A DNA stretch of 64,000 bases from Chiloscyllium plagiosum (taxonomy: Eukaryota): positions 78,542,935 through 78,606,934 of the forward strand of contig NC_057718.1 of the NCBI RefSeq assembly GCF_004010195.1, given 5' to 3'. Shown here in pieces: positions 481 to 62,970 of the stretch; within the stretch, counting starts at the first letter, position 1; every line of letters begins with the position of its first letter. The notes below the pieces were generated by a model. The model was not told where the DNA came from and searched no databases. It saw nothing but the letters and a program-made list of their open reading frames with translations. Made by a program: the position numbers and the translations under genes.

Positions 481-660
481 ATTTGGACTGAGGTGTACAA
501 ATTTAAAAATCACACAACACCAGATTACAGTGCAGCAGGTTTAATTGGAAACACTAGCTTTCAGAGTGCTGCTCCTTCATCAGGTGGTTATAGCGCTCTG
601 AAAGCTAGTGCTTCCAATTAAACCTATTGGACTATGACCTGGTGTTGTATGATTTTTAAC
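481..660 (-). mobile_element. Penelope-like fold-back insert, family A
   Basis: Inverted arms TTAAAAATCACACAACACCAG / CTGGTGTTGTATGATTTTTAA (503-659); same family as 38025 and 56119. Confidence 0.75.
552..586 (-). ncRNA. Minimal hammerhead ribozyme motif (family A)
   Basis: CAC-CUGAUGA-A-GGAG-CAGCA-CUCU-GAAA-GCUA-GUG. Confidence 0.75.
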
Positions 661-1799
661 AAAATTCAACGTCCTCAGGAAAAAAAATCACATTCGTGAT
701 TTTGAATATTCCTTATTCGCAAAGCTTCTTAGTAATGGAACCCTCATAGATAATACGAAGGAATGACTTTGTAATTTAAAGAGTGAATTAAATGCTTCAG
801 TATTTTGTTTTTAGCAAATGCATCTGCTAATGTTTAAATGGTTACCTGATATAATTAAAATTGTTTAAATGGTTACTTTTTAAAATATCCACATTCCTAG
901 TTGCCACAATCGTGGGGTCTACCTACCAAACCCTGGGCCATTAAAATCATTCCATCACCAACTTTCACATGCTTCCTTCCTTCATGCAGTTCTGCTCCCA
1001 TTCATACCTCCTCTGCAGCCATTTTTATTACCACACCACCACCTAATATTGCTTTGCATCAGCATTTTTGTCATCTAGCACCTTGCTCTCTAGCACCATT
1101 TTACTTTATCAAATTTCACTTCCTTTGCTACCCTTCTCATTTTCCCTGTATCAGCTTAAAAGTTGTTTATATCTAAACATCTCTCCAAAATGCTGCCAGA
1201 CCTCCTGCATATTTGTACTTTTTCTGTTTTAACTTCCAGTATCTGCGTTTAGTTTGCTTTGGTTTGAAACTCATTCATTGATGTTAAAATAAATAACACA
1301 AAGGACTGTGACTTCAGTGTAAGCTCTTTGCAAATTAGACCCCTTATAAGGACATTCTGAACCAAAGTTCAGCTGGAAAATTGACCTTTGATTTTATCAT
1401 TTAATCATCCATCTAATCTCAGTGTTGCAATATACCTGTCCAGTGAACTGAATCCTACTGTCTCCATCGTCTTTGTTTAAAAGTGCACATTGTTAATCAG
1501 AGACGTATTTAAGATAAACGAAGAAGAGACAGGCATAACAATCTGGCCACAATGTATCTGGATTTGTTCCCTTATCACACTCTTCTCCAGTCACCCAATT
1601 AACAAATTTTAATTTCTAACATTATTTTCAAGATAGTTTCAGCTTAGCTTTATATTAGCTGAACTCATACAGATATACTGACAATGCCATGTCAAATCAT
1701 TGTACAGAGTTGTTCCCTTCTGTCAAATTTTGAATGGGATATGATGGTAGACAGGATTGATACTCCACATTAGGACATCAGTTGTTAAGTAGTTAATTT

Positions 1800-2100
1800 A
1801 ATAAAGAAAGGCTTACATTTATATAACATCTTTCATGGAGCCATTTATGTGTTACAATGTAGGAAGAATTGACAGCTTTATGAACAACAATGTCCCACAA
1901 ATAGCAATGAGAATTTTCAAAAACGTTGTTTTAAGCACGGTTGAAGAATTAATAATATCTCGGACACTGGGGAGATCACTTCTCTATTTCTTTGAATGGG
2001 GCTGCAGAATTTTTCACATTCAGTTAACAGGTCAAGTGGGGTTATGTATAAATGTGTAATTGGAAAGATGACAAGTTTGACAGTGAAGTTCTAACTAAGG
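1800..2100 (-). mobile_element. Old DeuSINE (SacSINE1/AmnSINE1-like)
   Basis: Degenerate Deu-domain sequence (GGACACTGGGGAGA...GAAAGATGACA...GACAGTG). Confidence 0.6.
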
Positions 2101-2443
2101 ATTGCAATAACGACTGAGAAATTAGGACACAAGAACTAAAATCAAGTAATTTATATACCGAAGCAAGTTGATTTATTTTTCACTTTTACAATATTGGAGT
2201 CACATTTGTTTGTTTACTTCAAGTTTGAAGTAAATTATCTCCATCTTAAATGTGACAGTAGCTTGTCTATTCACTTATTAACAGAATAAACCATTGATTT
2301 GATTTGTTAATTTGTAGACCTTTGCTCTTCAGGCATTTGCTAGAATACAAAACTGCTGATAGTCTGCAGATAAACAGATCTGTGGATACATCCATCCCAT
2401 CAGAAGCTCTTCTATTGAGCTCTGGGGGAAACTCTCCTTTGCA

Positions 2444-2854
2444 ATGGCGGCTTTTGATGATGTTTTAATACAAATTGGAGGTTTTGGACAATATCAAAAG
2501 GTGATTTTCTTTCTGATATATCTGTCATCGATGATGTTCTCCCATTTGTACTTTGGATTTGTTTTTTTAGCAGTTACTCCTGACCATTGGTGCAGGAGTC
2601 CTGGGGTGACTGAGCTGAGAGATAAATGCAACTGGTCTCTGGAACAGGAGAAGAATTATACGTTACCTGTGGGGCAATCTGGCAGCTCCTCATACAGTCA
2701 GTGTGAGACATACGATATTGACTGGAACTCTTCTTCAGGCAGCTGTGAAAATCCACTGCTTTTTGTCCAGAATGGATCCCAAGATCTACCACGTACAACT
2801 TGCCAGGACGGGTGGGTTTTTGAAAATGGCTCATTCCCCAGTATTGTGACCGAG
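2444..2854 (+). CDS. SLC22A2: SLC22A2/OCT2-like organic cation transporter, coding exon 1 (TM1 and large extracellular loop)
   Basis: MAAFDDVL..GGFGQYQK...FLAVTPDHWCRSPGVTEL...CQDGWVF...SIVTE resembles the OCT1/2 N-terminus. GT donor at 2855; 411 nt, phase 0. Confidence 0.93.
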
Positions 2855-2964
2855 GTATGTTTGAATTTTAGTCAGTTATTAAACTTGTCTTAGAGCAGAA
2901 TTCCAAAGCATTATAGTGAAAGAAAGACTATAATTGTAAAATAGTTTTCACAAACGAGAAGTGT

Positions 2965-7491: not shown

Positions 7492-7780
7492 CACAGTGGC
7501 TCAGTGGTTAGCACTGCTGCCTCATAGCACCAGGGTCCTAGGTTCAATTCTAGCCTTGGGCGACTGTCTGTGTGGAATTTGCACATTCTCCCCGTGTTTG
7601 CATGGGTTTCCTCCTACAGTCCAAATACGTGCAGGGTAGGTGAATTGGCCATGCTAAATTGCCCATAGTGTTAGGTGTATTAGTCAGAGGGAAATGAGTC
7701 TGGGTGGTTACTCTTCAGATGGTTAGTGTAGCCTGGTTAGGCCAAATGGCCTGTTTCCACACTGTAGGTAATCTAATCTA
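7492..7780 (+). mobile_element. HE1-type tRNA-derived SINE nested in the Gmr1 pol gene
   Basis: A box TGGCTCAGTGG, B box GGTTCAATTC, conserved core, (TAATC)n tail. Confidence 0.9.
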
Positions 7781-12102: not shown

Positions 12103-12105
12103 AAC

Positions 12106-14295: not shown

Positions 14296-17100
14296 CCATA
14301 AAATATAGGATCAGAATTAGGCCATTTGGTATATCAAGTCTGCTCCACCGTTTGATCATGTCTGGTATGTTTCTCAAGCCCATTCTCCTGCCTTCAGCTC
14401 ATTACCCTTGATCCCTTTCCCATTCAGCTCTGTCTTAAATATACTCAATGACTTGGCCTCCTCAGATTCATCATCCACTGGCTGAAGAAATTCCTCCTCA
14501 TCTCAGTTCTAAAGGGTCATTCCTTTACTCTGAGGCTGTGCCATTGAATCCTAATCTTTCCTACTAGTGAAAACAGCTTCTCCACATCCACTCTATCCAG
14601 GTCTCTCAGTATTCTGTCAGTTTCAATGAGATACCCCTCATCTTTTTAAACTCCATCAGGTACAGAGTCCTCAACTGTTTCTCATATGACAAACACTTTA
14701 TCACTAGATCACTCTTGTGAACCTCCTCTGGACCTGCACTAAGGCAGCACATCTTTCCTTAGATCTAGTCTCAAAACTGTATGAATGGTCAGGCACAGTT
14801 CATACCTCTAACAAATTAAATAAAGGTTTATTATTTGTCTTAACAATCAGTCAGCATTTTCAAAATTTTACAATAGTGAAAAGCTTTACTGTGGCAGTAA
14901 GTCAACTCACACACTGGCATGTATACTGACCTTTCAACTCTTGCACTTAACCTCAAGTGTACCCATCATTCAAAGGGAGAGAGGGAAAAACTATGTAACT
15001 ATAGGCCAATTAACTTAATATCAATTGTTGAAAAAATATTGGAATCAATTATTAACAAAGTAAGAGCAGAAAAGTTGAAAAATCATTACATAGATAAGCA
15101 GAGCCAGCATGATTTCATGATAGGGAAATCATGTCTGACTAATTTATTCGAGTTTTTCGAGGAAGTCTCAACCAGAGTGGATAGAGGCGAACCAGTTGAT
15201 ATGCTGTATTTGGACTTCCAGAAGACATTCACAAGGTATCTCACAAAAGGTGACAAGTCATAAGATGGGCTATATTGTAATATATTGGCATGGATAGAGA
15301 TAGGAAACAACAACTGGGGGATACCGTGTTCTTTTTCAGCTTGGTGACCTGACATTAGTGGGGTTCCACAGGAATCAGTTTATAGTTTATATTAATGACT
15401 TAAAAGAAGAAAGCAAATGTACCATAGCCAAATATGCAGAAATAGGTCAAAGTGAAAGATACATGTATGAGAGGGATATAAGCAGTTTACAGAATGATAG
15501 ATCGGTTATATAAATGGGCAACAAAATGTTGACAAATAGTGGGAAAATATGAAGTTGTTCATTTTAGAAGGAAGAACAAAAGACCAGAGTATTATTTAAA
15601 TGCAGACAAACTGCAGAAAGCTACTATGTAAAGTGACTTGGGAATACATGTGCATGAAATGTAGAAATCTAGATCAAAGTGCAGCAAGTAATCAGGAAGG
15701 CTAATGAAATGTTGGAAATGTGTTGCTGGAAAAGCGCAGCAGGTCAGGCAGCATCGAAATGTTGGCCCTTATTTCAAAAGAGTATAAGAGTATGGAAGTC
15801 TTATTGCAATTGTACAAGGTGTTGGTGAGACTACATCTGGAGTACTGTGAGCAGTTTTGGTCCCTGTATTCAAGAAATGATTTCAATGGAGGTAGTTCAG
15901 AGAAGCTTCTCAAGGATGATCTCTGGTATGGAAGGATTGTTTTATGAGTAAAGGTTCAGCAGGTTGTGATTCTACTCACTGGCGTTTAGAAAATAAGACG
16001 TGGTCTTATTTAAACATTTTGGATTCTTATTAGACTTGACAGAGTAAATGCTGGGAGGATGCTTCCCCACATAGAGTTTAGAACCAGAGGACATAATCTC
16101 AGAATTAAGGGGCACCAATTTAAGACTGAGAAGAGGAGGAATTTCTTCTCTCAGAGGGTTGTGAGTCTTTGGAAAACCTTGTCACAGAGATCTGTGGGGC
16201 CAGAGTCTCTGAGTAGATTTAAGGCTGAGATAAATTGATTCTTGATCAGTAAGGGAAGAAGAGCAATTATGAAGAAAGGGCAGGAAGGTGGACATGGGGA
16301 GTGTTGGATTAACCATGCTCCTAGTGAAGATGAAGCAGGCTCAAGGGGCCAAATGCCCTACGTCTGTGCCTATTTCTTACATCTTATGATCTTTTATAAA
16401 TTATTATTTGTTCCTGAGAAATGGTAAATCCTGATCATTCACACTGAGGACGTTAAGAGCAGTCTGCAATCCATACCTTGTATGTCTGGAGGCATATCTA
16501 AGCTAGATCACATAGGACTGTTAGGACTAGACCAGTGAATTAATTGGTCTTTTTTTAGCAATTTGAACATATGAACATAAAATGTAAGAACTGGAGATGG
16601 CTATTTGGTCCTTCAAGCTCATTCTGCTATTCAGTAAGGCCATAGTTGATCTTCTATCTCAACTCCACCTTCCTGCACTGCCACCACATCCTCTAATTCC
16701 ATGTTTACCAAATTTCTATCAAACTTTGTTTTAAATACACTCAGTGACTGAATATTCATGGCTATCTGGGTAAACAGTTTCAAAAATTCACAATCTTGCA
16801 AGTGAAGAAAATTCTTCACATAGAATTATATGGTACAGAAGAGGCCCTTCAGCCCTTCGAGTCTACACCACCAAATCTACTCCAGATCTACATAAGTCCC
16901 ATTTTGCTGAACTTGGTCCATGGCTTTGGATATAATGACACTTGAAATCACTCATCCAAGTACTTTTTAAAGTTTGTGAGGTCACACACTCCTACTACCC
17001 TTCTAGACATTCCAGACAATCACCACCAACTTAAGTGAAAAACCCTTTCCTCAACTTCCTTTTAAACGTCCTGCCTTTCACCTTAAAAGTATACCATCTC
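14296..17100. mobile_element. Cluster of CR1 fragments (14296-14770 minus, 14950-16395 plus, 16570-17100 minus)
   Basis: NYRPINL, KSCLTNLFEFFEEV, YLDFQK and LEYCEQFW motifs; CR1 3' UTR motifs. Confidence 0.8.
15716..15755 (-). mobile_element. 40-bp Penelope-like fragment, family B
   Basis: Matches part of the 50411 element; perfect 10-bp TSD GAAATGTTGG. Confidence 0.85.
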
Positions 17101-23560: not shown

Positions 23561-23699
23561 TTTTATTGAAACAATTGCACAAAGGCCAGTATCCTGTCAC
23601 CAAATCATCCTTTATTTACATGTGCACAACAGCCAGCTTAGAGTCAGTCTCTCAAGTGAGGAGATTCTGAATCACCTTTTCTAAAGTATTTTCTTTAAA

Positions 23700-23900
23700 T
23701 GCATGCTATTGGAAAAGCTCAGCAGGTCTGGCAGCATCTGTGGAGAGAAATCAGAGTTAATATTTTGTCTCTAGTGACCCTTCTTCAGAACTTTCCTTCA
23801 GTTCTGAGGAAGGGTCACTGGACCCGAAATGTTAACTCTGATTTCTCTCCACAGATGCTGCCAGACCTGCTGAGCTTTTCCAACAATTTCTGCTTTTGCT
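23700..23900. mobile_element. Penelope-like fold-back insert, family C (older relatives at about 1180-1260, 5835-5990, 45825-45900, 52555-52730)
   Basis: Inverted arms of about 80 bp, GGAAAAGCTCAGCAGG.../...CCTGCTGAGCTTTTCC. Confidence 0.75.
23800..23837 (+). ncRNA. Minimal hammerhead ribozyme motif (family C)
   Basis: AGUU-CUGAGGA-A-GGGUC-ACUG-GACCC-GAAA-UGUU-AACU. Confidence 0.75.
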
Positions 23901-24015
23901 TTATTCCTTTTTACCTGCACACACAAGGGTGTCGCTTTCAGTAACTTGCACCCTCAACTAGCACTTAAACATGCCAGCGCTCTAGCACACAAAGGTTAGG
24001 AGATGCAGTTTTTAT

Positions 24016-37297: not shown

Positions 37298-37426
37298 ATT
37301 CCTGATGAAGGGCTGATGTCCGAAATGGTGATTCTCCTGCTCCTCGGATGCTGTTTGACCTGCTATGCTTTTCTAGCGCTATACTTTTTGACTCTGATCT
37401 CCAGCATCTGCAGTCCTCACTTTCTC
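37298..37426 (+). mobile_element. Penelope-like insert, family B, decayed hammerhead
   Basis: ATTCCTGATGAAGGGC...CTCACTTTCTC. Confidence 0.75.
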
Positions 37427-38024
37427 AGTGCTAATACTGCATCCTACTTACTAACTTACCATGGATTCAATGCCCCCTTACTCCCATCCTGATTCCTTGT
37501 TTAAGTTCTTGCCTGCCATGCTTTTCATCATTTATATAAATGATTTGGATGTGAACATAGGAGGTATAGTTTTCAATTTTGCAGATGACACCAAAATTGG
37601 AGGTGTAGTGGACAGCGAAGAAGGTTACCTCAGAGTACAATGCAATCTTGATCAGCTAGGCCAATGGGTCAAGGAGTGGCAGATGGAGTTTAATTTAGGT
37701 AAATGTGAGGTGCTACAGTTTGGAAAGGCAAATCAGGGCAAGACTTAATGGTAAGGTCCCGAGGAATGTTGCTGAACAAAGAGACATTGGAGAGCAGGTT
37801 CACAGATCTTTGAAAGTAAAGTTGCAGGTAGGTAAGATAGTTTAGAAGGTGTTTGGTATGCTTTTCTTTATTGGTCAGTCAGTGCATTGAGTATTGGAGT
37901 TGGGAGGTCATTTTGCAAATGAACAGGACATTGCTTAGGACACTTTTGGAATACTGCATTCAATTCTTGTCTCCCTGCTATAAGAAGGATGTTGTGAAAC
38001 TTGAAAGCATTCAGAAAAGATTTA

Positions 38025-38151
38025 GTTAAAAATCACACAAAGCCAGGTTATAGCACTAGCTTTCCTTCTGAATAAACCTGTTGGACCATAACCTGGTATT
38101 GTGTGATTTTTAACTTTTTGTCCACCCCAGTCCAATACCGGCACCTCCAAA
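38025..38151 (+). mobile_element. Penelope-like fold-back insert, family A, in CR1
   Basis: 14-bp TSD TCAGAAAA(G/T)ATTTA; inverted arms. Confidence 0.8.
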
Positions 38152-38583
38152 TCAGAAAATATTTATAAAGACATTGCCAAGCCTGGAGGGTTTGAGTTCT
38201 AGGAAGAAGTTGAATAGGCTGGGGCTATTTTCCCTGGAGTATTGGAGGCTGAGAGGTGCCCTTATTCAAGTTAATAAAATCATAAGGGGCATGGATAGGG
38301 TAAATAGACAAGGTCTTTTCCCTGGGGTAATGGAGTCCAAATCTAGAGGGCATAGGTTTAGGGTGAGAGGGGCAAGGTTTATAAAGGGGCAACTTTTTCA
38401 CGCAGAGGTTAGTACATGTATGGGATGAGCTGCTAGAGGAAATGGTGGAGGCTGATACAATTACATTTAAAAACATTTGGATGGGTATATGAATAGGAAG
38501 AGTTGAGAGGGGAATGGACCAAATGCTGGCAAAGGGGACTAGATTTTTTTAGGATATCTGGTCGGTATGGACAAGTTGGACCA

Positions 38584-38713
38584 TTCCTGATGAAGGGCGT
38601 TTGCCCGAAACGTCAATTTTCCTACTCCTTGGATGCTGCCTGACCTGCTGTGCTTTTCCAGCACTACTTTAATCTTGACTGTAATCTCCAGTATCTGCAG
38701 TACCCACTTCCGT
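38584..38713 (+). mobile_element. Penelope-like insert, family B, with intact hammerhead core (38587-38614)
   Basis: CUGAUGA-A-GGGC-GUUU-GCCC-GAAA-CGUC; 12-bp TSD CAAGTT(G/A)GACCA. Confidence 0.82.
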
Positions 38714-41324
38714 CAAGTTAGACCAAAAGGCTTATGTCCCTGCTGTACATCTCAATGACTTGATGCTTGTTTTATATTCCTCAGGGGCCTTGTCTGATTT
38801 CAATTTCCCAAACCTTACATATGTTTCCTTTCCTTTCTTGACTAAATTTTCAATATGTCTTGTCATCAATGGCTTCCAAGTCTTGCCATCCTTATTTTTC
38901 ATCCTTACAGGACAATGTTGGTCCTGAACTCTGATCAATTGGCCTTTAAAAAAACTTCCATATATCAGAAGTAGATTTACCATCAAACATCTGCCCTAAA
39001 TCTAATTTCTCCAGTTCCTTTCTAATATTGTTGTGATTAGCCTGTCCCCAGTTTAACCATTTCAATCAAGGACCAGTCTTATCCTTGTCCATAACTAGCT
39101 TAAAATGTATGTAATTATGATCACTGTTCCCAAAATGCTCTTCCACTGAAATATCAATCACCTAGTCATGCTCTTTCCCCAGTACAAGGTTTTAGTATGA
39201 TTGCTTCCCGAGTTGGACTATCTATATATTATTTCAAGAAACTCTCCTGAATGTACCTAACAAATTATGCCCCATCTCAGGAACTAAGGGAGTCCCAACC
39301 AATATTGGAGAATTTAAAACCACCCACAACAAAAACCCTGTTGTTTTAAATATCTTTCCATGATCTGTTTTTATACCTTCTGCTGGCTGTCAGGAAGCCT
39401 ACAGTATAATCCCATCATAGCAATTGTACCTTATTTATTCCTGAATTCTACCCATATGGCCTTTTTGGATGAGCTCTCCAAAATATCTTCTCTTAGTGCA
39501 GATGTGACATTCTCCTTAATCAATAATGCAACACCCTTACCCTTTTGTACATCCCTTTTCATCATGTCTGAAACATCTGAACCCTGGAATGTTGATCTTG
39601 CCCTTCTCTCAACTAAGCTTCTGTGATGGTGACAAAATCATTGATTTTATTGATGGCTTTTAGTGATATCACTCTTCCCTCAATCAGGAAGTTGGGCATG
39701 CACTTTCTTCTCCCTGCGTACACGTGTCTTCGCCCCCGCACATAATCTTTTCCCTCAATCCAATCTCTTATTGCTCTCTCAATTCTGCTCCCAATGGTAC
39801 TGTACAGTTTGTCATTACTGACACCTCTCATCTACAATTGTAAATTGCAGGCTCTAAGCTTATCTGCCTTACTTGTTGTACAGACTGCACTGAAGTACAG
39901 TTCAGACCGCCAATCCCATGTTCATTAGCCTGGTCCTGTCTGTTCATCCTGTTAGACTTATTTGACAACCTCTACCTTCTCCTCAATCACTGTACATACT
40001 GACCTACTGCTCTGGTTCCCAGCTCTCTTTTACACCAGTTTAAGTCCTCCCGAGTGGCACTACTACACTAATATACAATCAGTTATGTGTAACATATTAA
40101 ACGCTTTGGGATTTTGAATGTAAGATGTGGCTTATTGATAACATGCTTCCCTGAGTCAGAAGTTTGGACATGCACTTTCTTCTCCCTTATGTACCCGTGT
40201 CTTCCCCGCTGCACACAATCTCTTCCCTCAATGCAATCTCTTCTTGCTTTCTCAACTCTGCTCCCAATGGTACTATACAGGTTGACATTATTGACATCTC
40301 ATGGCGTCTGCCACCTCTGCCAGTACCTGACACGAGGTAAGGATTATTTGAGGTAGTTCAGTGACACTTTGTCTATTATGTAGTTAGGACCTATCTAATG
40401 ATTAATAGTGGATGATATTCCACTGTAGAGCCTTTTCAGAAGAGGAATTTGTTTTAGTTGGCAAAGTGGTTTATTGCATCATAGCAATAAGTGTAACTAC
40501 ATTACTAGTCAGGCAATATTTACTAGGATTCTCAAGAGCTGGATGGTATTCACCTGGTCTCTGCAAATGCTCATGTGGTACTGCCTTAATCCAAAAACTG
40601 GATTACATTATCAGAATAAATGCAGATTATACAACTTCAACATTCACTCTTCCAAAATTATTATCTTATACAACATTCCTTGTGATTGCTTCAACACTTT
40701 GCCTGATCTGTTCCCCCATTGATTTAATCTTTCCCAGTGTCCAATTGCCCCATGGACCATCTCTTCCATTTCCCATTGCAGAATTCATTCTATGCTCCAC
40801 TTGCAAACTTCTATCTCCAAGCGTATATGATCTCCAGGTTGAATTATTGTCTCTCCCTGACCACTTGGTGATCTATCCTTATCTCTGCAAACATAGACGG
40901 GAGTTGACCCTGTCAGCAATCAGAAAAAGGGCAAATAAAAAGGGCACAGTAGCAGCATCAGACAGGGATATGGGATGCAATTGCCCTCATTGTCCAGAAG
41001 CTATATCAGTTCAGTGAATCATGAAACCATCTAGATGCATCCTCATGGAGAGCCAGGCCCAGCACCTTGACCAGTTACTGAAAAATGCACACTTCCACTT
41101 CATTTCCACCCATTGGTTCCCAGTACTGGAGCAGGTGACAAGGGGGAGCCATGAAGCACACTCTGTCGGAGGTGGAACTACACACCGACCGCTTTGCCCA
41201 TTCCACAGACATTGTTTGGTGTTCATCCTGCCTGCCCTCCTCCAACCCTTGGACACTTACATAAAGGACAGTCATCATGTCTTTGGCAAGAAGAACCTTG
41301 CATGTTTGGCCTGATAAACACAAA

Positions 41325-41538
41325 GGAGAAAGTGAGGTCTGCAGATGCTGGAGATCAGAGCCGGAGATGTGTTGCTGGAAAAGCGCAGCAGGTCAGGCAG
41401 CATCCAGGGAACAGGAGAATCGACATTTCGGGCATAAGCCCTTCTTCAGGAAGAAGGGCTTATGCCCGAAACGTCGATTCTCCTGTTCCCTGGATGCTGC
41501 CTGACCTGCTGCGCTTTTCCAGCAACACATCTCCGGCT
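41325..41538 (-). mobile_element. Young Penelope-like fold-back insert, family B, hammerhead at the apex
   Basis: Perfect 14-bp TSD CTGATAAACACAAA; 93-bp arms with one mismatch. Confidence 0.88.
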
Positions 41539-43679
41539 CTGATAAACACAAATGTCACTGTGATAAGACAACCAAACTTCTCGGGTCAACATGTTGAACA
41601 ATTGAATGGTTGTTCTCTCCCCCATAGCTGCTGAACCAGGTAGTATACTAAAACATAGTGGGAGTGAAATAAGAAAACATATTGAGGGCACAATGGTGGC
41701 ACAAATGTTAAAAAAAGTCTGTCATACTGAGTTCTTGCATAAATGTTCCTGATGTTAGCATTCATATGGCTATGAGTCTCTCTGTGTAAGCACTAAGAGC
41801 ATGTTCACACCATCCAGCAGCATTACATAGAGAAAGCTCCAGGAATGGAGGTCTATGATGCAACCCAACTCCACCTTTTGGAAACAGGAGGCACAAAGCA
41901 TACCCATAGCATTGGTTCATGGTAACACTTTGTCCCTCCTCATTCAACATTATTAATATTTGGCTTTCTCTGTGCAGAAAGATGTAGCTGTCAAAGAATT
42001 GTCCAGCAGTGGCTAGACGATAAAGGTGTAACATACAGAGAGCATGTAGATGGCCAGGGCAATAGGCACCAGCTTGTGGCCAATGTCCTTCCCCTTTAAA
42101 AGCCCTATGCTCGGTTTTTGCAGCATCCCTCTCCCATATAGTTTGAGTCACTTACCCTGACCACTTAAGAGTGTTCTTGAAGCCATTTTCTTCCCCATTG
42201 CATGTGACTAACTCACAACATGATGAAGGGCAATAACAAGTGCTCCTCTGCTAGTGACCTCCATCCTTAGTCTTAAATGGTGAGTCCCCAAACATCCGCA
42301 TACCTCCGAGTAACCCATCCCATTAACCCCACAGGCTTCACACTTCCCTAAGTCCCTCAGCTCCTGTCTACATGAGCCTGCACCTGTCAACTATCCCAGC
42401 CACCCCTAAGCAAATGAAGTGACAATGCTTAGTGTGGTAATTTACCATGCCTCAACACCACTCCGCCTCCCCCCCCGCCCCGCCACTGAGGCTAGGGAGA
42501 TCCTAACCATGGATAACACTCCTCTCTCATGTTACTCCCTTCTCTGCCATGCTTTACTGTATCACGCCCTTGCAAACCCTGCTGCCCCTCTTCACAATTG
42601 TACTGCACCCTTGACCAAAGCTAGGAGTCCTGGGACACAAACAGTGACTTGCTGAGGCTCAGTTCTACAGGAACAGCCACACTCGCCCTCACACCATTCC
42701 GCTTCTCCCTTATTTTCTGTGGGTAGACTCAATCTTGTCCTACTCCCCTCAACAAATATGACCGGATAACCCTGGGTAAGGCAAGCCAAAACCTCTGACT
42801 GGCGTCTGTACATCTCCCTGACCTGCATGGTAGACTTGTCGCTTTGAGCCAATGGACAGATTGTAACCCACTCCCTGGACTTCAGAGGCACGGACCTCCA
42901 ACCTGGAACACCCCAACCTGATGCCTGACTTTGGCAATTCCATTGAATGATTTGGGAGACTGCTATGGAAGACCACTCTATACTTAGAGAGCCTGAACCC
43001 CCTGACCTACCCCCTCCCCCCTCCCGCTTCCCCCCTCCAGACTGAGGATGCTCAGTAGCAAGGTAAGCTGTTTGTTTTGTGATTGTGCTAATTGGTACAG
43101 CAAGGAAGGCAAGGAAGTTGCTTAGCAACCAGGTGTGAAAAAAGCAAGCATCCAAGATGCAGCCTAGTTCAGTCTGCAATCTGTCCCTCACACAAAATGC
43201 TTCTGCTGCATTTCAATGCTAGTTTCTAGTGCATGCTGCAATGCACTGCCAATGCCAAGTAGAAGTGCCAGGATAGTTTTGATCAATTTTGCCTTTCCAA
43301 GGATTTGCACACATTGGTTGGCATGCGATCACTGCTTGCAGCATGGACTTCCGATTTCAGAAGATGCTGCCATGCATGGACCTTGGAGATCTGTGCAGGA
43401 GAAAACAAATAGTGGGGACACTTGGTTTAATGGGTTGGCAGATGCCAGAAGCCTATTGTCCACGAGTGGGATGGGTACATTTGGTGCCAATCAAATGTGC
43501 CCTAGGCTATGGTTTGGTTGCAAGCAACATGGTCATTCAGAGCAAGTGGTGAGCTGAAATCATTCTGGCCTCCTTGTTGAGTTTTCCTGACATCTAGCCT
43601 GTTTGGCAAGTTTAATAAAGTGCAAAGGTAAGTATTAATGAATCGAGCTGTGGTCTTAAATATGTGGTGATACCTATCA

Positions 43680-45550: not shown

Positions 45551-46074
45551 CTCGAGTCACCATTTTGTCAACTGAAGAGATTTAACAAATAGACGCCTAC
45601 CTCAGTTTCATAAATACAGGGGTGTAACCACATGCATTGCAAAAAATCTTAGCGTCATTCTCTTAGGTATTTGTTCAATTGCTAGAATTGTAGTCTCAAC
45701 TTCCTGGGAGCTCCTGTCATTTAAACAGAGTTTAATGAATTTCCAACCAGCTTCCTAGATTATCGCTGGAGCAGCAAAGAAGATTCAGGCCAAGATATAT
45801 TTGGGAAAGGAAACCTCCCAATATAAACAAAACCAGAAATTGCTGAGCCTCTCCAGCAATTTCTGTTTTTAATTCGATACAAATTTCCAGTATCTGCAAC
45901 TGTTTAAATTCACTCCTCTCAGCATGGACTTGTATCATGGTTATAGCAACGTAAGTCCAAAATTTACACAGATAATCAGGTGATATAACAAATTACCTCT
46001 GCAACATGATTTTGGAAATGTGAACATGTGAGCTTCAAAAGGTTGGGGATATAAACTGTTCTATTGTCTACCAG

Positions 46075-46342: not shown

Positions 46343-46695
46343 AGAGTAGAATCCCTACAGTGTGGAAACAGGCCATTTGGCCCAACAAGTTCACACTGAC
46401 CCTCCGGAGAGTAACCTTCCCAGACCCATTCCCCTACCCTATTACTCTACATTTACCCCTGACTAATGTACCTAACCTGCACATCTCTGAACACTCTGGG
46501 CAATTTAGCATGGCCAATTCATCCAACCTGCACATCTTTGGACTGTGGGAGGAAACTGGAACACTCGAACGGAACAAAAGCAGACACAGGCAGAACGTTC
46601 AAACTACACATAGACAATCACCCAAGGCTGGAATTGAACCTGGGTCCCTAGCACTGTGAGGCAGCAGTGCTATCCACTGAGCCAGTATGCTGGCC
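46343..46695 (-). mobile_element. HE1-type SINE
   Basis: Reverse complement of the 24744-type copy. Confidence 0.88.
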
Positions 46696-47614
46696 TGTGA
46701 ACTGAGCACAAACAGGGTTATTTTGATTCTTATGCTGACCACATGTCTGCCACTGTCAAAGACTGGATGTAAAATTCAACCTGTGCGTTGACCTCTTTGG
46801 AAATTGCTGGAATGCTTGAGCTTCCGAATAGTAATTCACCTAATCCCCAGTACCCTCTACAAAAATCCCTATGTTAGATTTGGCGACTTCCATGGTTCTT
46901 ATCTGGATAATTGCTCAGAAGTGTTAGGCACAATAAAACCTAGTCTTCTTTCCACCCACTCAGGTAATCACTCACACTGACCCCTTTCAGACCTCTTTTG
47001 ACCCCTGACCCAACCAAATAACCCCTGAACTCCCAACTTTCCTTCTCACACCATCCCATCACTGATTACCCGACAAACCCTGCATAACCCTGGACTAACC
47101 AACCTGAGACCCCCATCACCCAAATACCTGCAGTCCATGTACCCACACCATCCTAACCAGATATCATCTCACCCACCTATCTATTCACTAACATTCACAC
47201 AGGAGACTTGAACTTACCATGCAACAGCTAGTGTTGTAAGAGGGTGTGTCCTGTCTGGCACTGGCATCACAAAGGAGTTCTTCATGAATGCTGTGCTCTG
47301 TATTTCTGAAAGATGCCAGGCTCCAAAGACCTGGGGTGGAATGCAAAGCATAATAAGCTATTGAAATGTTCGAGTGGAGCGGTAACCTAACAATGATTGC
47401 TGGTTCGTGGAAGATCTGGGCTAATATTTCATTTGGGATGAGGACTGTGTGTCTTGTAATACACAAAACTCTGTACTTGTGTTGATATTTTGAAATTTTG
47501 AAAAAAAACTTGCTCTAAACCAATTTTTCGACATTATTTAAATTCCTCTATGTCTGATATCTGTTTCTTTACATATTTTTTCCCTCTATTGAATCTCTGT
47601 AAATTTATTCACAG

Positions 47615-47714: not shown

Positions 47715-48879
47715 GCAAGTAAAATTACACTTACAGGAGCACTGTAATTACTCAGTCCTGTGTTATTCCAATGCCAATGATCAATTCTGAGAGTAGTGGT
47801 GCTTGTTAATAACCGATGCCTCAATAGCAGATTCTGCTGAAATGGAGATAGATAGAATGCTTCCAGAACTTTCTCCGAACTGCTGTTTCTTCTTCTTTCC
47901 TTGGGATCAAAGATGTTTCTGCTGTGGTTCAATGGGTTTGCAGATGACTGATTTCCATGAAGCAATTTGTTGAGTCTTTCACATTCAGGGCAGGTTGCTC
48001 TTCAGTTACCTTGTACTTGAAACCAATATTGCTACCTGCACATTCAAATACTTGTTTGGAGTTTGTTAGACTGTGGTTCTCTGCGCATCTACTGTCCCTG
48101 AGTTGGCTTGCTCCTTATATCACTAAGTAAAGCTCTTCAATTTACTGTAACACTTTTATTTACACCGATGCAAATCTCAAGTGGAATATCTAAGATGTCA
48201 CGCTACACATGCTTGTTCTTTGCCTTCACTCTCCATTTCAGAATAGATCAATCTGTTAAATTGGATAGGCAAAATATGTCCAGAACAGCTCACTCTACCA
48301 TAATTTTAATGGGCCAGATAGAAGAGGTTTTTGGAGATTTGTGTGCCGTCTGATACCTCAACTTCCTCTGTCTGTTCCCAACTTGTTTTGTTTGTGCCTT
48401 CATAAATTGTCTCTAATATAGCGATCACAAGCCAAGGACTCCCATGAGTTGGTGGGGATGTTTGACCTTTTCAGGGATCCTTTGACACATTTCAAACTGT
48501 TTCCTTTGTCCTGGGAGTTTTCTGCCATGCCAGAGCATACAAACAACATGTCCTGCCCAGCAGAGTCGATTTTGAATGATTAGCATCTTAATACCAGGCA
48601 TGTTGACATGGGAGACGATACTGCAGATGGGCCATCTTTCTTGTCATGGATTTGACTATTAAAACATGAACTAAGATTATGGATTATTGGGGTCACAATT
48701 CCTATGCTCCAGTATGGTTCAGAGACTTGGAAAATCTACATCAATAGTCAAAGCACTAGAGAAATTACTTTTCAACTATTTACTTAATGCCTGATATTTG
48801 AATGTGTTCAGGACTGACATGCTTTCTGGTTATATTGTTTATTAATTGTTCAACTGGTTTGTCAGGAAAATTGAGCCCT

Positions 48880-48948
48880 ATTCCGGATGAAGGGCTTTTG
48901 CCTGAAACGTCAATTTTCCCGCTCCTCGCATGCTGCCTGACCTCCTGA
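48880..48948 (+). mobile_element. Penelope-like fragment, family B (core mutated to CGGATGA)
   Basis: Similarity to the 38584 copy. Confidence 0.7.
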
Positions 48949-50410: not shown

Positions 50411-50622
50411 ATATGGAAATGTGTTGCTGGAAAAGCGCAGCAGGTCAGGCAGCATCCAGGGAACAGGAGAATCGACGTTTCAGGCATTAGCCCTTCTTCA
50501 GGAAAGGGCTAATGCCCGAAACGTCGATTCTCCTGTTCCCTGGATGCTGCCTGACCTGCTGCGCTTTTCCAGCAACACATTTCCATCTCTGATCTCCAGC
50601 ATCTGCAGACCTCACTTTCTCC
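50411..50622 (+). mobile_element. Young Penelope-like fold-back insert, family B
   Basis: Perfect 14-bp TSD TGTCCAAGTGTTAG; 83-bp arms with one mismatch. Confidence 0.88.
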
Positions 50623-51586
50623 TGTCCAAGTGTTAGGTGTGGGGCAGCAAGCAAAATGTGATCTCAGGATTATAAACTGGTGTTTTGGGATTCAATATTC
50701 TACAATAACTGCAATTCCTAACCGTGGTATTAGCTGGCAGAGTTAGAACACATAACATTCAAGACTGCGCTTTGCAGAACCATTTTTAAAACTTGGTCTA
50801 AAGACGTCTATCATGCAGGTGGACACTGCATTCTCCAACTCAATGAACACCCAAGTGTAGACCTGAGTGTGGAACATGGGCAGACAGTGAGGTACTATGA
50901 TCCCCTGCAAGGCCTGCTGCGTGCACCTATTAATGGATACATTGGCCCAGCCCTGGAGTAAGCCCCAATCTTCTACTTAAGCTTGCAATGAGAAGAATGC
51001 GACTGAAGTGATGTATTGGAAGTTAGCTGGCAGAGGAACTATACCCTCCAAGTCTGTTGTATTGCAAATTTGTATGTAGCAGGGCCTTGGTACTGGATAC
51101 ATCCTGGAGTAAGTGCCAGGAACAAACCTACCTTTAACTTCCACTACAGATCCAAGCAAAACTGCAGAGGTCTGATGGCAATGTCTTGTGATTTATCTGC
51201 GATTGGTAGGTACATAGACAGTAGATAGGGAGACCGAGCTGCGTAAATGGCCACAAACTACAGCATAACATTGTCCACCCATAGAATTATGAAATGTAGA
51301 AAAAATTACAGATACCCCATTCCCACCAAATTTGCTGCCCTATGTAAGGAGGCTGCACTTGATTAAAGAAGGTAATTTCTTGTTCTTCCATGGTTGAAGG
51401 CAGGATCCTAGCTTGGGTAGTATCTCACAAAACAGACCAACTTCCACCATTAAGTCTATTATCACCTTCTCCCCCACACACATGCGCACACAACACACAC
51501 CACCACACACACGTGACTAGGTGTTTCTGGACCCCAGGCTAATGTTTATCCTTGAGATGGCTCAGGAGTTTTCACTTTCAGCAGCC

Positions 51587-51904
51587 TTAGATTAGATTAC
51601 TTACAGTGTGGAAACAGGCCCTTCGGCCGAACAAGTCCACACCGACCCGCCGAAGCGCACCCACCCAGACTCATTCCCCTACATTTACCCCTGCACCTAA
51701 CACTACAGGCAATTTAGCGTGGCCAATTCACCTAACCTGCACATTTTTGGACTGTGGGAGGAAACCGGAGCACCCGGAGGAAACCCACGCAGACACGGGG
51801 AGAATGTGCAAACTCCACACAGTCAGTCGCCTGAGGCGGGAATTGAACCCGGGTCTCTGGCGCTGTGAGGCAGTAGTGCTAACCACTGTGCCGCCGTGCC
51901 GCCC
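51587..51904 (-). mobile_element. HE1-type SINE, young, full length
   Basis: Reverse complement of the 24016 copy; possible short TSD CTTAG. Confidence 0.92.
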
Positions 51905-52029
51905 CTTAGTATTGAAGGAAACGTGTATTGAAAGGGAGAAAAGAAAATGTGATCTCTTAGCGCTGAATTTCATACTGAGAACATTGAGGTTCAAACTGGT
52001 GTGAAGTAAATATTTGGTTGTTACTTTAG

Positions 52030-52276: not shown

Positions 52277-52352
52277 ATTAAAAACATAATTTCACTGTCA
52301 GTTCACTCTTAAAAAAGCATTTTGACAACTGGTGTTGAAGTTGAATATTAAA
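52277..52352 (+). terminator. Candidate polyadenylation signals (ATTAAA at 52277 and 52347)
   Basis: Variant hexamers in the AT-rich region after the putative stop. Confidence 0.35.
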
Positions 52353-52754
52353 CTATAAAAAATTATGTTTGGATTAATTATCTGTAATGAAAATTACTGA
52401 AAATTTCATGCCCATAATTATAGCTTAGATCTTGGAAAATAATTTCATTTTTATCTTTTTCAAGAATTCTTCAGTAATAGAACAAACCCTGTCCCTTTCT
52501 CATCAACCATGTGGAACAATCCAATCTCGTTACCTCAGCAGCTTAGTGTAATCAAAGAACTGTGAATGCTGGAGATCTGAAACAAACAAAAATAGAAGCT
52601 GTTGAGGAAATTCAGCAGGTCTGGCAGCAATTAATGTTTTGGTCACTGAACTCAAAATGTCAACTCTGTTTCACTCCATAGGTGCTGCCTGGCCTGCTGA
52701 GTGTATCCATCAATTTGTGTTTGTGTTTGTTTTATTTCATCAGATTTGTTTTCT

Positions 52755-55410: not shown

Positions 55411-55414
55411 GGTT

Positions 55415-56690
55415 TTATGAAGTTTAAATTATATTTGACTAATTTGCTATAATTCTTTGAAATGTACCAAACAATGTGGATAATGAGGATCCTGTAGATG
55501 TAGTACATCTAGGCATGAAGGTGATAAGGTGAAGCACAAAAGTTTAATATACAAGGTAAGGTTGCATGGGGTAAGGGATAATTTAGTAACTTGAATAGAG
55601 GATTGGCAAACCAGCAGAAAGCAAAGAAATGGAATAACATGCCAAAACTAGTTGACCCTAACTATTTACAATCTATATTAGTAACTTGGACACAGGAATA
55701 GAAAGTACTGTAGTGAAATTTGCAAATGACACTAAAATAAGTGGGAAGGTAAGTTGTCATGAAGAAATAAGAAATTTACAAATGGATATTGGATAGATTA
55801 CTTGAATGGACCAAAATTTGACAGATAAAGTTTAACATGGATATCCATTTTGATCAGAGGAATAGGAAGGCAACTTACTATCTAAATGCCAGAGTGCTTT
55901 GGTGCAAAGGAATCTGTGTGTTCTCATGCATGACACACTGAAAACTAGTTAGCAGGTACAGCAGGTAATAGGAAGGAAAAAGTAGTGTTTTGGCATTTAT
56001 TGTGAAATGAATAGCATATAACAATAGGGAAGAATTGTTGTAACTATACAAGACATTAGTGAGACTGCACCTGGAGTATTGTCAACATTTTTGACCCCTT
56101 TACTTGAGGAGGGATAAAGTTAAAATTTACGCAACACTAGGTCATAGTCCAATAGGTTTATTTGGAAGCATTAGCTTTCAGAGGCTGTTCCTTCATCAGA
56201 TAGCTGTGGAGCAGGATCATAAGGCACAATTTATAGCAAAAGATTACAGAATCATGCAACTCAAACAATATATTGAACAAACCTAAATTGCTGTTAAGTC
56301 TTTCATCTTTTAGAATGGGTGCAGGTTTTGGTTCATTAATATGTAACTACCAGAACTTCATTCAAGTCACAGTCTCTTGATAACTTAAGGTTTTATTAAA
56401 AAAAAGTGTCATCTCAGCTCAGACAATGCACTAAAGGTGTGAAGTTAGAGTCTGTCTGTGACCCAATTTTGAGTAACTGTATAGGAGGCAGTTCAGAGAA
56501 GGTTCATTAGATTGATTCTAGAGATTAGGATATTGTCTCATGAAGAGAAATTGAGCAGTTTAGACGTATACTCTCTGGAGTTTAGAAGAATGAGAGGAGA
56601 TCTAATTTAGATATATATATGGTGTTAAGGGAGTGACAAAGTAGATGTAGAAAGGGTGTATTCTTATGTAGGGCAATCTAGAACAGTGCA
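55415..56690 (+). mobile_element. Old CR1 RT fragment interrupted by a Penelope-like insert
   Basis: KFANDTK and HLEYCQ remnants. Confidence 0.7.
56119..56475 (-). mobile_element. Longer Penelope-like 3' fragment, family A, decayed hammerhead at 56169-56202
   Basis: First about 85 bp match the 503-590 arm, then about 270 bp of further sequence; interrupts a CR1. Confidence 0.7.
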
Positions 56691-60219: not shown

Positions 60220-60334
60220 TAGGAGAACGTGAGGACTGCAGATGCTAGAGAAGGGCTTATGCCCGAAACATCAATTCTCCTGCTCCTTGGATGCTGCCTG
60301 ACCTGCTGCGCTTTTCCAGCAACACATTTTTCAG
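60220..60334 (-). mobile_element. Penelope-like insert, family B, with internal inversion
   Basis: Perfect 16-bp TSD CAAGGGAGTATTCAAT. Confidence 0.85.
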
Positions 60335-60814
60335 CAAGGGAGTATTCAATGACTATCAAGACATGAGGAAGCTCAGGAAAGAGAGAGATCTTGGGGTGCT
60401 CATCCATAGATCTCTGAAAATGACAGGAGAGGTTAAAAGGATAGTTAAGGCATATGGGATGCTTGATTTTACTGGGCATAGTATAGGTCATAAGAGCAGG
60501 GAGGTAATGTTGGAGTTGTACAAAACTTTGGTTAGATCACAACTGGAGTACTGTGTGCAATACTATGGGAATGATGTGATTGTATAGGAGAGGATGTAAA
60601 GGAAATTCACCAGGAAGTTGGTGCAGAACAGAGCATTTCAGCAATGAAGAGAGGCTGGATAAGCTCAGATTGTTTTCTTTGGAGGAATGAATGTTGAAAG
60701 GGGACCCGTCAGAGCTGCATAAGATTATGAGGCACATAGACTGGGCGAATATAAAGTGATCGTGCTGATTCGTCTAAGGATCAATAACAAGAGTGCATAA
60801 TTTTATTATGCATG

Positions 60815-61128
60815 ATGGCATGGTGGCTCAGTGGTTAATACTGCTGCCTCACAGTACCAGGGACCTGGGATTGATTCCAGCCTCCGGCAACTGTGTGTAT
60901 GCAGTTTGCACGTTCTCCCTTTGTCTGCATGGGTTTCCTCCGGGTGTTCTGGTTTCCTCCCACCAATTGGCCATGCTAAATTGCCCATCATGCTCAGTGA
61001 TGTGTAGGTTGGTGCATTAGTCAGGGGTAAGTATAAGGTAGGGGGAATGGTCTGGGTGGGTGACTCTTGGAAGGTTGGTGTGGATTTGTTGGGCTGAAGG
61101 GCCCGTTTCCACGCTGTAGGGATTCTAT
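60815..61128 (+). mobile_element. HE1-type SINE nested in CR1
   Basis: A box, core and GGGATTCTAT tail. Confidence 0.88.
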
Positions 61129-61599
61129 AATTTTAAAGTGCAAATCAGGAGGTTTGGAGGGGATTTGAGGAAAAGCTTTTTCATCCAGAGGGTGTTGGAA
61201 GTCTGGAATGTACTGCCTGGGAGGACAGTTGAAGTGGGTAATCTCAACTTTTAAGAAGTACTCAAAGTGTTACAGCATTAAAAGCTATGGATTTAGTTTG
61301 GGAAAGTTGGACTAGTTTAAGTCATGGTATAACTTTGACAATGCAGACTCAATGAGCTGAAAGACCTCTTCTATACTCTTAAAATTCTAAAGTTTTAATG
61401 TAAGGGATAGATTTAAAACAGAGACGAGAAGAAATTACACTGCCCCAGAGTGTGGTTAATTAGTAACTCAATTGAAGGGTTATGGAGAATGGGCAGGAAA
61501 GTAGAGTTGAGGCCTAACTGAGATCAGCCATGATCATATTAAATGGCGAGTAGCCTCAAAGGGCTAAATTGCTTCCTCCTGCTCCCAGTTCTTATGTTC

Positions 61600-62650
61600 C
61601 CCTGAGTTTATCTTCTCCAGCAAGTGATTCCCACCTATCAGTGCAAATATTGCATTTTTTAAGGAGGCTTTCAAGGTTTCCTTTTGTGTTTCCTCTGTTC
61701 TCCCAGTGAATGCTTACCATTGTAGAGCACAGAGTAGAGCACTTGTTCAGGGAATCTTGTGTCAAACATGTGGACAATGTAGCCATCCCATCGCAGCTGA
61801 CTGTGTGTGACCAGTGCCTCAATACTAGGGGTACTGGCATAGGAGAGGATGCTCAGGTTGATAAGCATAGTCTGTCATTGGATTTGCAGGATTTTACAAA
61901 GGTAGTACTGGTGATAACTCTTCAGGGATTTGAGGTATCTGCTGTACATGATTCATGTTTCTGATACAAACAGAAGATTGGGGACCACAGCTGTTCTGTC
62001 AACCATGAGCTTGCTGGTGGGTTTGAGATCTTGGATATCAAATACTCTCTGTTCCCCAGGTGTCCAAAATATATTGGCACATTGGAGTCACTTTTGGATC
62101 TCATTGTCAATGTCTGCTCACACTAAGAGGTTTAGGGAAATGATTCATGTTGCCAGGGTCTTGCTGGAGACATTGATGGTTAAGGTGTAGTGTTGTGTGG
62201 CAGGAATGCACTATTAGAGAACCTTTGTTTTCTGAACAATTAGTATGAGACTCATCTTACCATCTTCCTCGGTGAACGTGGAGAAAAGCATTGGTGAGAT
62301 GATACAGTCCTGCTTGACCCCAGTTTGCACTGGTATTGGATCTGTGATGGATACATTGGTGAGAATCACAGCTTGCATGTCATCACGAAGCAGGTGGAGA
62401 ATAGCTACAAATTTCTGTGGGCAGACAAATTTAAGGAGGCTATTCCACAAACCCTCACAGTTGACAGATTCAAAGGCCTTTGTGTCTATCGAAGAAGGCC
62501 ATATATGGAGGTTGGTGCTATTCTGCGCTTTTTCTTAGATTTGTCACGCATTGAAAACCATGCCTCTTGATGAACAGAAGCTGTATTGAGAATCTGAGGT
62601 GACAGTTGAAGAGGATTCTTGCAGTGACCTTCACTTTGGTGGACAGTCCA
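61600..62650 (-). mobile_element. RTE-clade LINE fragment (a smaller piece lies at about 48340-48840)
   Basis: CPQKFVAILHLL..DMQAVI..TGVKQ and QLRW.G.IV.M.DTR.P.QVLY motifs typical of RTE ORFs. Confidence 0.75.
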
Positions 62651-62654
62651 GAAA

Positions 62655-62970
62655 TAGATTAGCTAGGTGACCCGATTGTGATGCAAAGTGATGCCAACAG
62701 CGTGGGTTCAATTCCTGCATCAGCTGTGGTTACCATGTAGACCTTGCCTTCTCAACCTTACACCTTTTGCCTGAGGAGAAAGTGAGGTCTGCAGATGCTG
62801 GAGATCAAAGTTGAAACTTTATTGCTGGAACAGCACAGCAGGTCAGGCAGCATCCAGGGAACAGGAGATTCGACGTTTCGGGCACAGGCCCTTCTTCAGG
62901 GCCTTTTGCCTGAGGCATGGTGAGCCTCAAGCTAAACTCCCCAGCAGTCATCTCTCTCCAAATAGAGAAC
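62655..62970 (+). mobile_element. Second tRNA-like SINE family, split by a Penelope-like insert (related copy at about 25745-25860)
   Basis: B box GGTTCAATTCC with shared flanks in both copies. Confidence 0.45.
62775..62901 (-). mobile_element. Penelope-like insert, family B, intact hammerhead core (62868-62901)
   Basis: Minus strand C-CUGAAGA-A-GGGC-CUGU-GCCC-GAAA-CGUC-GAAU; TSD CCTTTTGCCTGA(GG). Confidence 0.85.

Follow-up and report, generated by a model that had tools for sequence, protein, structure and literature searches.

The window analysed here, a 64,000-nucleotide stretch of the Chiloscyllium plagiosum genome, is interspersed with short inserts bearing all or part of a hammerhead ribozyme motif, and the question it raises is whether these form a mobile system of their own or are pieces of a larger coding element. 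The initial annotation favoured the former, proposing three families of a short, non-autonomous and retrozyme-like system. This proposal is not upheld, as each family is the end piece of an ORF-bearing Penelope-like element (PLE), with untranslated regions specific to the variant and inverted junctions specific to the copy. It is very probable that the inserts are pLTR stubs, i.e., copies of the ribozyme-bearing terminal unit, of three ORF-bearing Neptune-type PLEs, and we hold with good confidence the fuller explanation, in which these stubs would also be likely run-off copies of uncleaved RNA. The Penelope-type minimal hammerheads, retroelement origin and high abundance recognized in the annotation are all supported.

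The hammerhead motif and its copies in the window

The motif has the layout of the minimal type I hammerhead of PLEs (CUGANGA, an extra base, stem II, GAAA, a palindrome and NUH). Within the window, CUGANGA followed by GAAA is found at 583-559 (-), 23804-23829 (+), 37302 (+), 38587 (+), 41449-41426 (-), 50501 (-), 56199 (-) and 62899-62876 (-), and every motif position reported earlier was confirmed. In the window, the full hammerhead descriptor had 3 matches, compared with none in 100 dinucleotide shuffles; a broader sample of 832.5 kb from five regions had 41, compared with 0-1 in 10 shuffles. These numbers exclude a chance origin of the motif. Exact core matches across the genome number 22,316 for family A, 88,166 for B and 1,962 for C, with 0 for the controls. 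An Rfam scan of the window gave no hammerhead family at E ≤ 1.

The earlier figure of about 12 inserts was a slight undercount: 16 are present, including 2 tiny fragments (3 of family A, 9 of B and 4 of C). Only 8 of the 16 retain both CUGANGA and GAAA and 3 pass the descriptor, and most window copies are decayed. The density, put previously at about one copy per 5 kb, is 1 per 4.5 kb (~184 inserts) in the 832.5-kb sample. Seven of the 16 are head-to-head inverted pairs, and several bear a tail and 10-16-bp target-site duplications, features absent from the earlier description.

Family A is represented by a head-to-head stub at 483..660 (-), of which the minus arm (589-483; hammerhead core 583-555) passes the descriptor and the plus arm (592-660) begins within stem II, with a 7-nt duplication candidate only; by an inverted pair of coreless downstream fragments with a tail at 38024..38153; and by a hammerhead-bearing copy at 56116..56316 (-) that passes the descriptor and reaches 122 nt upstream into the 3' UTR of the element. 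Numbering the C of CUGA as +1 and the preceding base as 0, the family B stub at 62772..62900 (-) has a perfect core, begins one base before CUGA and carries a full tail and a 14-bp duplication. Two further B stubs, at 37299..37426 (+) and 38584..38709 (+), span from ATTC to the tail end and from ATTC into the tail, the former having lost NUH and the latter having an intact core and a stem I pair gone by CpG decay. Head-to-head B stubs are located at 41324..41543 (minus arm tailed; target-site duplication of 14 bp at 41311 / 41539), 50414..50623 (plus arm tailed, minus arm with the core; 14-bp duplication) and 60221..60335 (a tail-only minus arm and an arm of +5..+90; 16-bp duplication). The other B copies are a stub at 28875..28997 (+) that begins within CUGA and sits in a CR1-like LINE ORF, a stub at 48874..48947 (+) with a mutated CUGA, and a coreless fragment (+46..+88) at 15713..15755 (-) with a 10-bp duplication. 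Family C comprises a head-to-head stub at 23696..23901 (+) (plus-arm core 23804-23833; minus arm decayed; 4-bp stem I, AGUU/AACU; helix III CpG-decayed), a decayed head-to-head stub at 52554..52728 with a tail and an incomplete core, a coreless fragment at 45833..45874 (+), and a weak C-like match (E 3e-4) to the downstream segment, also coreless, at 1180..1207 (+).

The stems described earlier do covary, since stems I, II and III show paired changes among the lineages, of which only three are independent, and between subfamilies only N7 and loop II vary. The expected excess of core over loop conservation was also found: in 93 copies, aligned such that each had to reach +1, a requirement favouring the first core columns, identity is 92-100% in the core, except for N7 at 48%, and 52-96% in loop II. 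Two forms in the window are decayed, the stem II GGAG/CUCU first reported being the CpG-decayed form of family A GGAGC/GCUCC, and the helix III AUGU of the family C copy that of ACGU. The family B loops UUAU, UAAU, UUUU, GUUU and CUGU all occur in the window, but they mark subfamilies rather than varying freely.

Linkage to coding elements and the form of the copies

Although the window holds no coding partner, as had been observed, ORF-bearing PLEs for each family exist elsewhere in the genome, and the suggested upstream extension led to a GIY-YIG and RT ORF (RT core for B and C; thumb to endonuclease for A). Longer copies continue upstream into a 3' UTR, GIY-YIG, Zn finger and RT, which identifies the short inserts as probable pLTR stubs. 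The unit is ordered as ATTC (-3..0), core (+1..+28), end site 1 (~+90), tail, end site 2 (~+125..+134) and ATG (~+163), followed by the ORF (RT, Zn finger, GIY-YIG), the 3' UTR and a second unit. In family B, 8 of 30 loci extend into the UTR and endonuclease; the ORF at L057 contains a thumb, CxxxxCxxC and GIY-YIG (E 4e-4, below the Pfam cut-off), and L160/L182 holds RT and unit together, with an RT piece of 41% identity to a 902-aa RVT_1+GIY-YIG protein (E 4e-92). The RT piece P0001 was recognized by none of Pfam, NCBIfam and PDB, and its identity comes from matching homologs instead of domain databases. The family C locus L138 runs from YIDD through the endonuclease, 307 nt ahead of the core, and family A loci L114, L095 and L116 hold thumb, Zn finger and endonuclease; family A gave no linked RT core among the loci examined. 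Read-through copies yield the ATG and an N-terminus matching homologs, and every copy fetched is interrupted, none having an uninterrupted full ORF. A long upstream sequence common to L189, L197 and L211, considered as the element 5' end, proved to be a segmental duplication.

Between RT and endonuclease lies a finger (B, CNRRRCKTC; A, CHGRRCKTC; C, CNHHGCNTC) that fits CX2-5CxxC, which ahead of GIY-YIG is given as the Neptune criterion and is common to Nematis (PMC8557442); the Neptune assignment is made on this shared criterion, the 23 homologs bearing no clade names. Each loop variant is associated with its own 3' UTR (U1 UUAU, 45/48; U3 CUGU, 4/4; U4 UUUU, 18/20), at loci partly chosen by sequence. 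Recent mobility, also claimed initially, is supported for family B, where 38 of 40 scored candidates are identical over 94 nt and thus point to recent activity.

One tailed and one untailed arm make up 55 of 58 inverted B pairs, and 17/17 in unbiased blocks, and a duplication of at least 8 nt (mode 14-15) accompanies 53 of the 58 and 16/17, respectively. Visual inspection gave the same combination of inverted arm, one-arm tail and target duplication for A and C loci. At paralogous sites, the filled and empty versions are distinguished by a 13-bp duplication. Partial tandems are also present (e.g., L007, L026, L028); 11 of 14 ORF-to-unit tandems share one duplication, and 16 of 18 ORF-to-unit junctions fall at -7..+4.

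Inverted-repeat shape and target duplications are what would be expected if the palindromes were DNA-transposon MITEs with an incidental hammerhead match, the outcome named beforehand as refuting a Penelope origin. The arms, however, are unequal, about half of the B arms are not inverted, duplications are 10-17 nt long, and arms run on into the RT-GIY-YIG ORF, a linkage that refutes this reading and leaves it a negligible probability. Highly improbable and largely refuted is the proposal that the short forms belong to a non-autonomous family of their own, akin to retrozymes or SINEs, whose RNA would cleave itself, circularise and make use of the PLE enzyme. Stubs do exceed UTR-bearing copies by ~3.5 to 1 (116 vs 33 unbiased B arms), and pLTR-related retrozymes, one chondrichthyan included, are reported in a preprint (bioRxiv 10.64898/2026.07.22.740005). 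Against this proposal, B arms form no head-to-tail arrays, tandem-class arms amounting to 0/149 and 3/156 in two samples (3/305), and repeats with a hammerhead per unit, a trait of non-LTR retrozymes, were not found among these 305. Ends are in no excess at the cleavage site (+27..+31), where 2 + 2 = 4 of 197 non-UTR B arms begin and 6.5 are expected; the position of the inverted junction varies from copy to copy; and each loop variant has its own UTR.

Starts of the stubs and the RNA copied

In family B, 101 of the 197 arms without UTR have their start at the core or immediately ahead of it, in most cases at an Inr-like ATTC. By sample, 61/116 and 40/81 begin at or before +2, counted once UTR-bearing arms (33/149 and 75/156) had been removed and arms adjoining N or ending before +70 left out beforehand; a few of the "non-UTR" arms may be diverged-UTR copies. 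This peak is weaker in A (19/56) and C (28/66). In public reads, depth steps tenfold and flanks become mixed at -4/-3; RNA reads from a polyA library derive from host transcripts on both strands and have no pile-up of ends. A splice acceptor at -3 is ruled out by the preceding bases, TC or CC and not AG, and a +46 peak in the first end histogram came from cross-matches involving C and older families and was taken out. Copies mosaic for UTR and unit, a possible sign of strand transfer, had little discordance. Since starts pile up at or before the core and few fall at the cleavage site, the stubs are likely run-off cDNAs from the 5' end of uncleaved RNA, and the further step of equating the stub boundary with the 5' end of the element RNA seems somewhat better than an even bet. 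Transcription of Drosophila Penelope starts 46 nt ahead of an intron that ends at the ribozyme, so the -3 geometry is not general.

By extension from in-vitro work on Anolis, the RT-endonuclease would nick both strands ~14 bp apart and cDNA would begin at two internal sites of the unit, one strand from each, to give a head-to-head pair with a single tail. The presumed first base of the element RNA is the A of ATTC, in an Inr-like context (TCATTC in B and TCAGTT in C). Priming on the 5' unit would then give run-off products of 95-135 nt, copies that reach the UTR and ORF would come from priming on the 3' unit, and partial tandems from a jump that follows run-off. The ribozyme, which probably needs both dimerization and help from a protein to cleave, would be kept by selection on master elements, with the stubs as dead copies. 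In the Anolis work, ribozyme mutants are reported to insert normally (PMC11167929).

A competing account, decidedly less likely, keeps the same elements and holds that the -3 boundary is enzyme-made, by an endonuclease cut at the ATT of ATTC or an RT stall on a longer RNA. The Anolis endonuclease is reported to favour 5'-ATT-3' near the ORF-pLTR junction (PMC11167929), no additional G that would betray a cap is seen at -4 (5/24 host-flanked arms with A at -3), and 33/149 unbiased B arms pass -3 into the UTR. Yet 0/30 read-through copies, necessarily from the 5' unit, cross -7 or reach the UTR, where a leaky stop would pass some; host-flanked stubs have their own duplications and so are not insertions into older pLTRs; and window duplications have no ATT preference evident by eye. 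It is doubtful, in turn, that the motif is a relic retained as a promoter or protein-binding sequence after loss of cleavage. Stem I of family B is only 2 bp with a U-U and one more pair, the computed dimer fold (family C left out of folding) lies ~11 kcal/mol above the cofold minimum, the block at +46..+56 is as strongly conserved as the core in the 93 copies, and 8/9 Xenopus dimers failed to cleave. Dimer cleavage is reportedly the subject of a study by Lunse et al. from 2017. The restriction of subfamily changes to N7 and loop II and the paired changes across three lineages stand against a relic, as does the Anolis motif, described as cleaving once its protein is added (PMC11167929).

To return to stubs as run-off copies, a retrovirus-like cycle is a speculative and rather unlikely extension, in which the RNA would start four bases before the core, the RT would prime internally near the 5' end and run off as a strong-stop product, the ribozyme would cut the downstream copy only, leaving a 32-nt terminal repeat (-3..+28), and the cDNA would jump onto this repeat and copy the rest. 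If so, the stubs, in their hundreds of thousands, would represent strand transfers that failed, and this family would allow a test of why PLE hammerheads remain conserved although insertion needs no cleavage, a question long open.

Comparison with known systems

The class is already known and its architecture described in print; the three families may be uncurated. Literature searches brought up no paper combining hammerheads, Penelope and cartilaginous fish, and none that describes these families or the 5' pile-up, with Frangieh Fig. S2 and the bioRxiv supplements possibly bearing on novelty; passages of whale-shark papers list Penelope only as present or expanded. Published coelacanth and Xenopus minimal hammerheads share the extra base between 9 and 10.1, G10.1-C11.1, palindromic 15.2-16.2 and short helix I, and are likewise mostly single dispersed motifs with opposite-strand pairs 100-700 bp apart. 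Exact matches are ~112,000 here versus ~4,000 (coelacanth) and 9,000 (Xenopus), by differing descriptors. In the parts consulted, that survey does not name sharks, and the cleave-and-circularise cycle proposed there predicts no boundary at -3.

Neptune-clade insertion units (PMC8557442, PMC3846280) resemble those here in 5' truncation, inverted upstream copy, one-arm 30-40-bp tail, target duplication and CX2-5CxxC before GIY-YIG, but most copies here are unit-only stubs, and duplications are mostly 13-16 bp versus 8-10 in rotifer PLEs. PAc, an Anolis Poseidon element (Frangieh 2024, PMC11167929), similarly has two internal RT starts ~100-140 nt past the ribozyme that bound the tail, extends both strands and uses unprocessed RNA; it belongs to a different clade, and its ATG lies in stem II versus ~30 nt past the tail here. 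The main text of that paper, figure S2 aside, does not describe a genomic 5' pile-up. Animal non-LTR retrozymes (PMC7229834; bioRxiv 10.64898/2026.07.22.740005) have in common the type I hammerhead, PLE kinship and very high copy number, up to 120,000 in axolotl according to a section heading in one of the two, but are head-to-tail 150-450-bp repeats giving circular RNA, whereas the copies here are stubs, dispersed or in inverted form, that join directly onto a coding element.

Exact core matches number ~112,000, and the five-region sample, if representative of the genome, implies ~0.8 million inserts; together they form a very large natural record relevant to an unsettled matter in PLE biology, the identity of the RNA that is copied and the function of the ribozyme. 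Ends of inserts are concentrated four bases ahead of the core and avoid the cleavage site. This pattern agrees with unprocessed RNA serving as template, as found in vitro, and speaks against a cycle of cleavage and circularisation in these families; it also yields exact predictions for the mapping of 5' and 3' ends. The palindromic inserts also mimic MITEs and miRNA hairpins, four of the five sub-threshold Rfam matches in the window being weak hits of miRNA models on palindromes.

Families of Penelope-like elements carrying a minimal hammerhead

On the features tested, the three groups of short inserts (families A, B and C) are endonuclease-bearing Penelope-like elements (PLEs) with a minimal hammerhead, and their sequences place them probably in the Neptune clade. 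A motif scan of the window located CUGANGA...GAAA at every position named in the initial annotation, and self-comparison resolved 16 inserts (3 A, 9 B and 4 C; two tiny), of which 8 retain both core boxes and 3 pass the full minimal-hammerhead descriptor, compared with none in 100 shuffles. Across 832.5 kb, comprising the window and four 200-kb blocks, the descriptor found 41 matches versus 0-1 in 10 shuffles, and inserts occur about once per 4.5 kb. Over the whole 3.56-Gb genome, exact-pattern searches recorded 88,166 matches for family B, 22,316 for A and 1,962 for C, counts not strictly comparable between families since CpG decay was permitted in the A and C patterns and not in B; reversed core patterns gave zero matches in the same search. 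An Rfam scan of the window returned no hammerhead-family match. The nearest named protein relatives are those of Chiloscyllium punctatum, consistent with an elasmobranch host. At least two further hammerhead types, one whose stem II is GGGU..ACCC-like and another whose stem II is longer, occur in sample blocks C3, C12 and C20 and hint at further PLE families.

The coding element was reached by walking upstream. A UTR and GIY-YIG frame precede the insert in 8/30 top B loci, a thumb and zinc finger follow further upstream in locus L057, the walk extends to the YIDD region, and an RT core is present in B loci that also carry the unit (the pLTR, or terminal hammerhead-bearing piece). The B coding pieces share about 40% identity with a 902-aa protein that combines RVT_1 and GIY-YIG, and read-through beyond the tail, the segment between the end sites near +90 and +125..+134 (+1 being the C of CUGA), meets an ATG 30 nt on and then an N-terminus matching those of homologs. 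Family C is linked to RT-thumb-finger-endonuclease at L138 and family A to thumb-finger-endonuclease at L114, L095 and L116, with no RT core linked to family A in the loci examined. All three possess the CX2-5CxxC finger, described as a Neptune and Nematis trait in PMC8557442. The ORFs in the copies examined, a non-exhaustive set, are all interrupted or gapped. Retrozyme identity was rejected because the head-to-tail arrays that define retrozymes are nearly absent among the B arms. The papers searched yielded no description of these families or their 5' pile-up.

A CA-rich microsatellite tract lies in the 3' UTR of family A, upstream of the core (L114, L119, L095). A different GIY-YIG frame at L008 (1-230), without resemblance to A, B or C and presumably Poseidon-like by motif, suggests one more PLE clade in this genome.

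Ribozyme signature and insert architecture

Among 93 copies aligned to the B reference, constancy is 92-100% in the core columns apart from N7 (48%), 80, 80, 52 and 96% at the loop II positions, and 73-85% in the CpG columns. Between families, stem II (GGAGC/GCUCC, GGGC/GCCC, GGGUC/GACCC), stem I (CAC/GUG, UC/GA, AGUU/AACU) and helix III (AGCU or ACGU) change in pairs, representing three lineages and few independent events. Subfamilies are recognisable by their loop variants, and each goes with its own upstream UTR. By nearest-neighbour energies, the dimer fold of A and B is less stable than the cofold minimum by about 11 kcal/mol, which makes weak unaided cleavage likely. This prediction agrees with the low hammerhead activity reported in PMC4209133 and with the protein-assisted cleavage of the Anolis element in PMC11167929. 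A downstream block (+46..+60) is common to B and C, with +46..+56 as constant as the core (94-100%), and is a candidate protein-binding or promoter element.

In 55/58 head-to-head B pairs, a set partly selected by tail or core, one arm ends at +120..+137 and the other at +78..+98; 53/58 have a target duplication of at least 8 nt, which measures 10-17 nt in 49 of the 53. All 17 pairs from unbiased blocks have two-end-site arms, and 16 have a target duplication. The inverted junction is unique to each B pair. Compared with its empty counterpart, a filled paralogous site has in addition a stub (a short unit-only copy) and a 13-bp duplication. This pair comes from unplaced, segmentally duplicated contigs (L246, L248, L249) with an old truncated B element, one of which carries the younger stub. 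The PLE insertion unit described in published work has the same inverted copy, one-sided tail and duplication, and PAc, the Anolis Poseidon PLE, has two internal start sites for RT to which the two B end sites correspond. The 4.7-kb insertion at L182 (2951-7642), with two RT-bearing arms inverted head-to-head, is the long form of the window palindromes; assembly gaps affect many loci of this type.

The 5' boundary and its possible origin

With arms running into any UTR excluded (33/149 in the unbiased sample, 75/156 in the flank sample), 61/116 and 40/81 B arms start at or before +2. The cleavage bin, +27..+31, holds only 2 and 2 of the starts, compared with 3.9 and 2.6 predicted from the neighbouring rate. 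The trend is the same and weaker in families A (19/56) and C (28/66), with 3 and 3 in the cleavage bin. Position -3 is A in 24/30 host-flanked arms that reach the reference start. None of 30 copies selected for ORF read-through extends to the UTR; 18 directly adjoin another unit, 16 of these beginning at -7..+4, and 11/14 ORF-to-unit tandems examined have one shared duplication. In public reads the depth steps tenfold at -4/-3, with mixed flanks; these reads come from inserts carried in host transcripts and bear only on the DNA boundary, which they confirm.

Published PLE work describes a double nick, two internal starts and insertion without need of cleavage. In the scheme proposed here, element RNA would begin at -3; stubs would be run-off products of priming on the 5' unit, inverted pairs would come from two primings, and partial tandems from a jump following run-off. 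The boundary carries TCATTC, which we take to be Inr-like from the Inr consensus. The Drosophila element promoter is of the Inr/DPE type. No cap-G trace was found at the 5' ends. The main rival, that an enzyme makes the -3 boundary at ATT, draws on the preference of the Anolis endonuclease for cutting there (PMC11167929), and appears less likely. More doubtful still is that cleavage of the downstream copy serves strand transfer by creating a short terminal repeat. Mosaic UTR/unit copies, an indirect look at such transfer, display little discordance and point neither way.

Other features of the window

An SLC22 organic cation transporter gene has its first coding exon at 2444-2890 on the forward strand (best PDB match OCT2, E 8e-43), and the inserts downstream of this exon are probably intronic. 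An RT-bearing LINE remnant, presumably CR1-like, occupies 28740-31400 of the same strand (RVT_1, E 9e-32), with a B stub breaking it at 28875. Repeat families D5, D8 and D11 are made up of other 3' LINE fragments. A dispersed 300-nt repeat family (D1, D2, D4, D7), which we assume to resemble the shark HE1 SINE, is found at 7492-7775, 19470-19771, 24020-25425, 46419-46699, 51695-51912 and 60817-61136.
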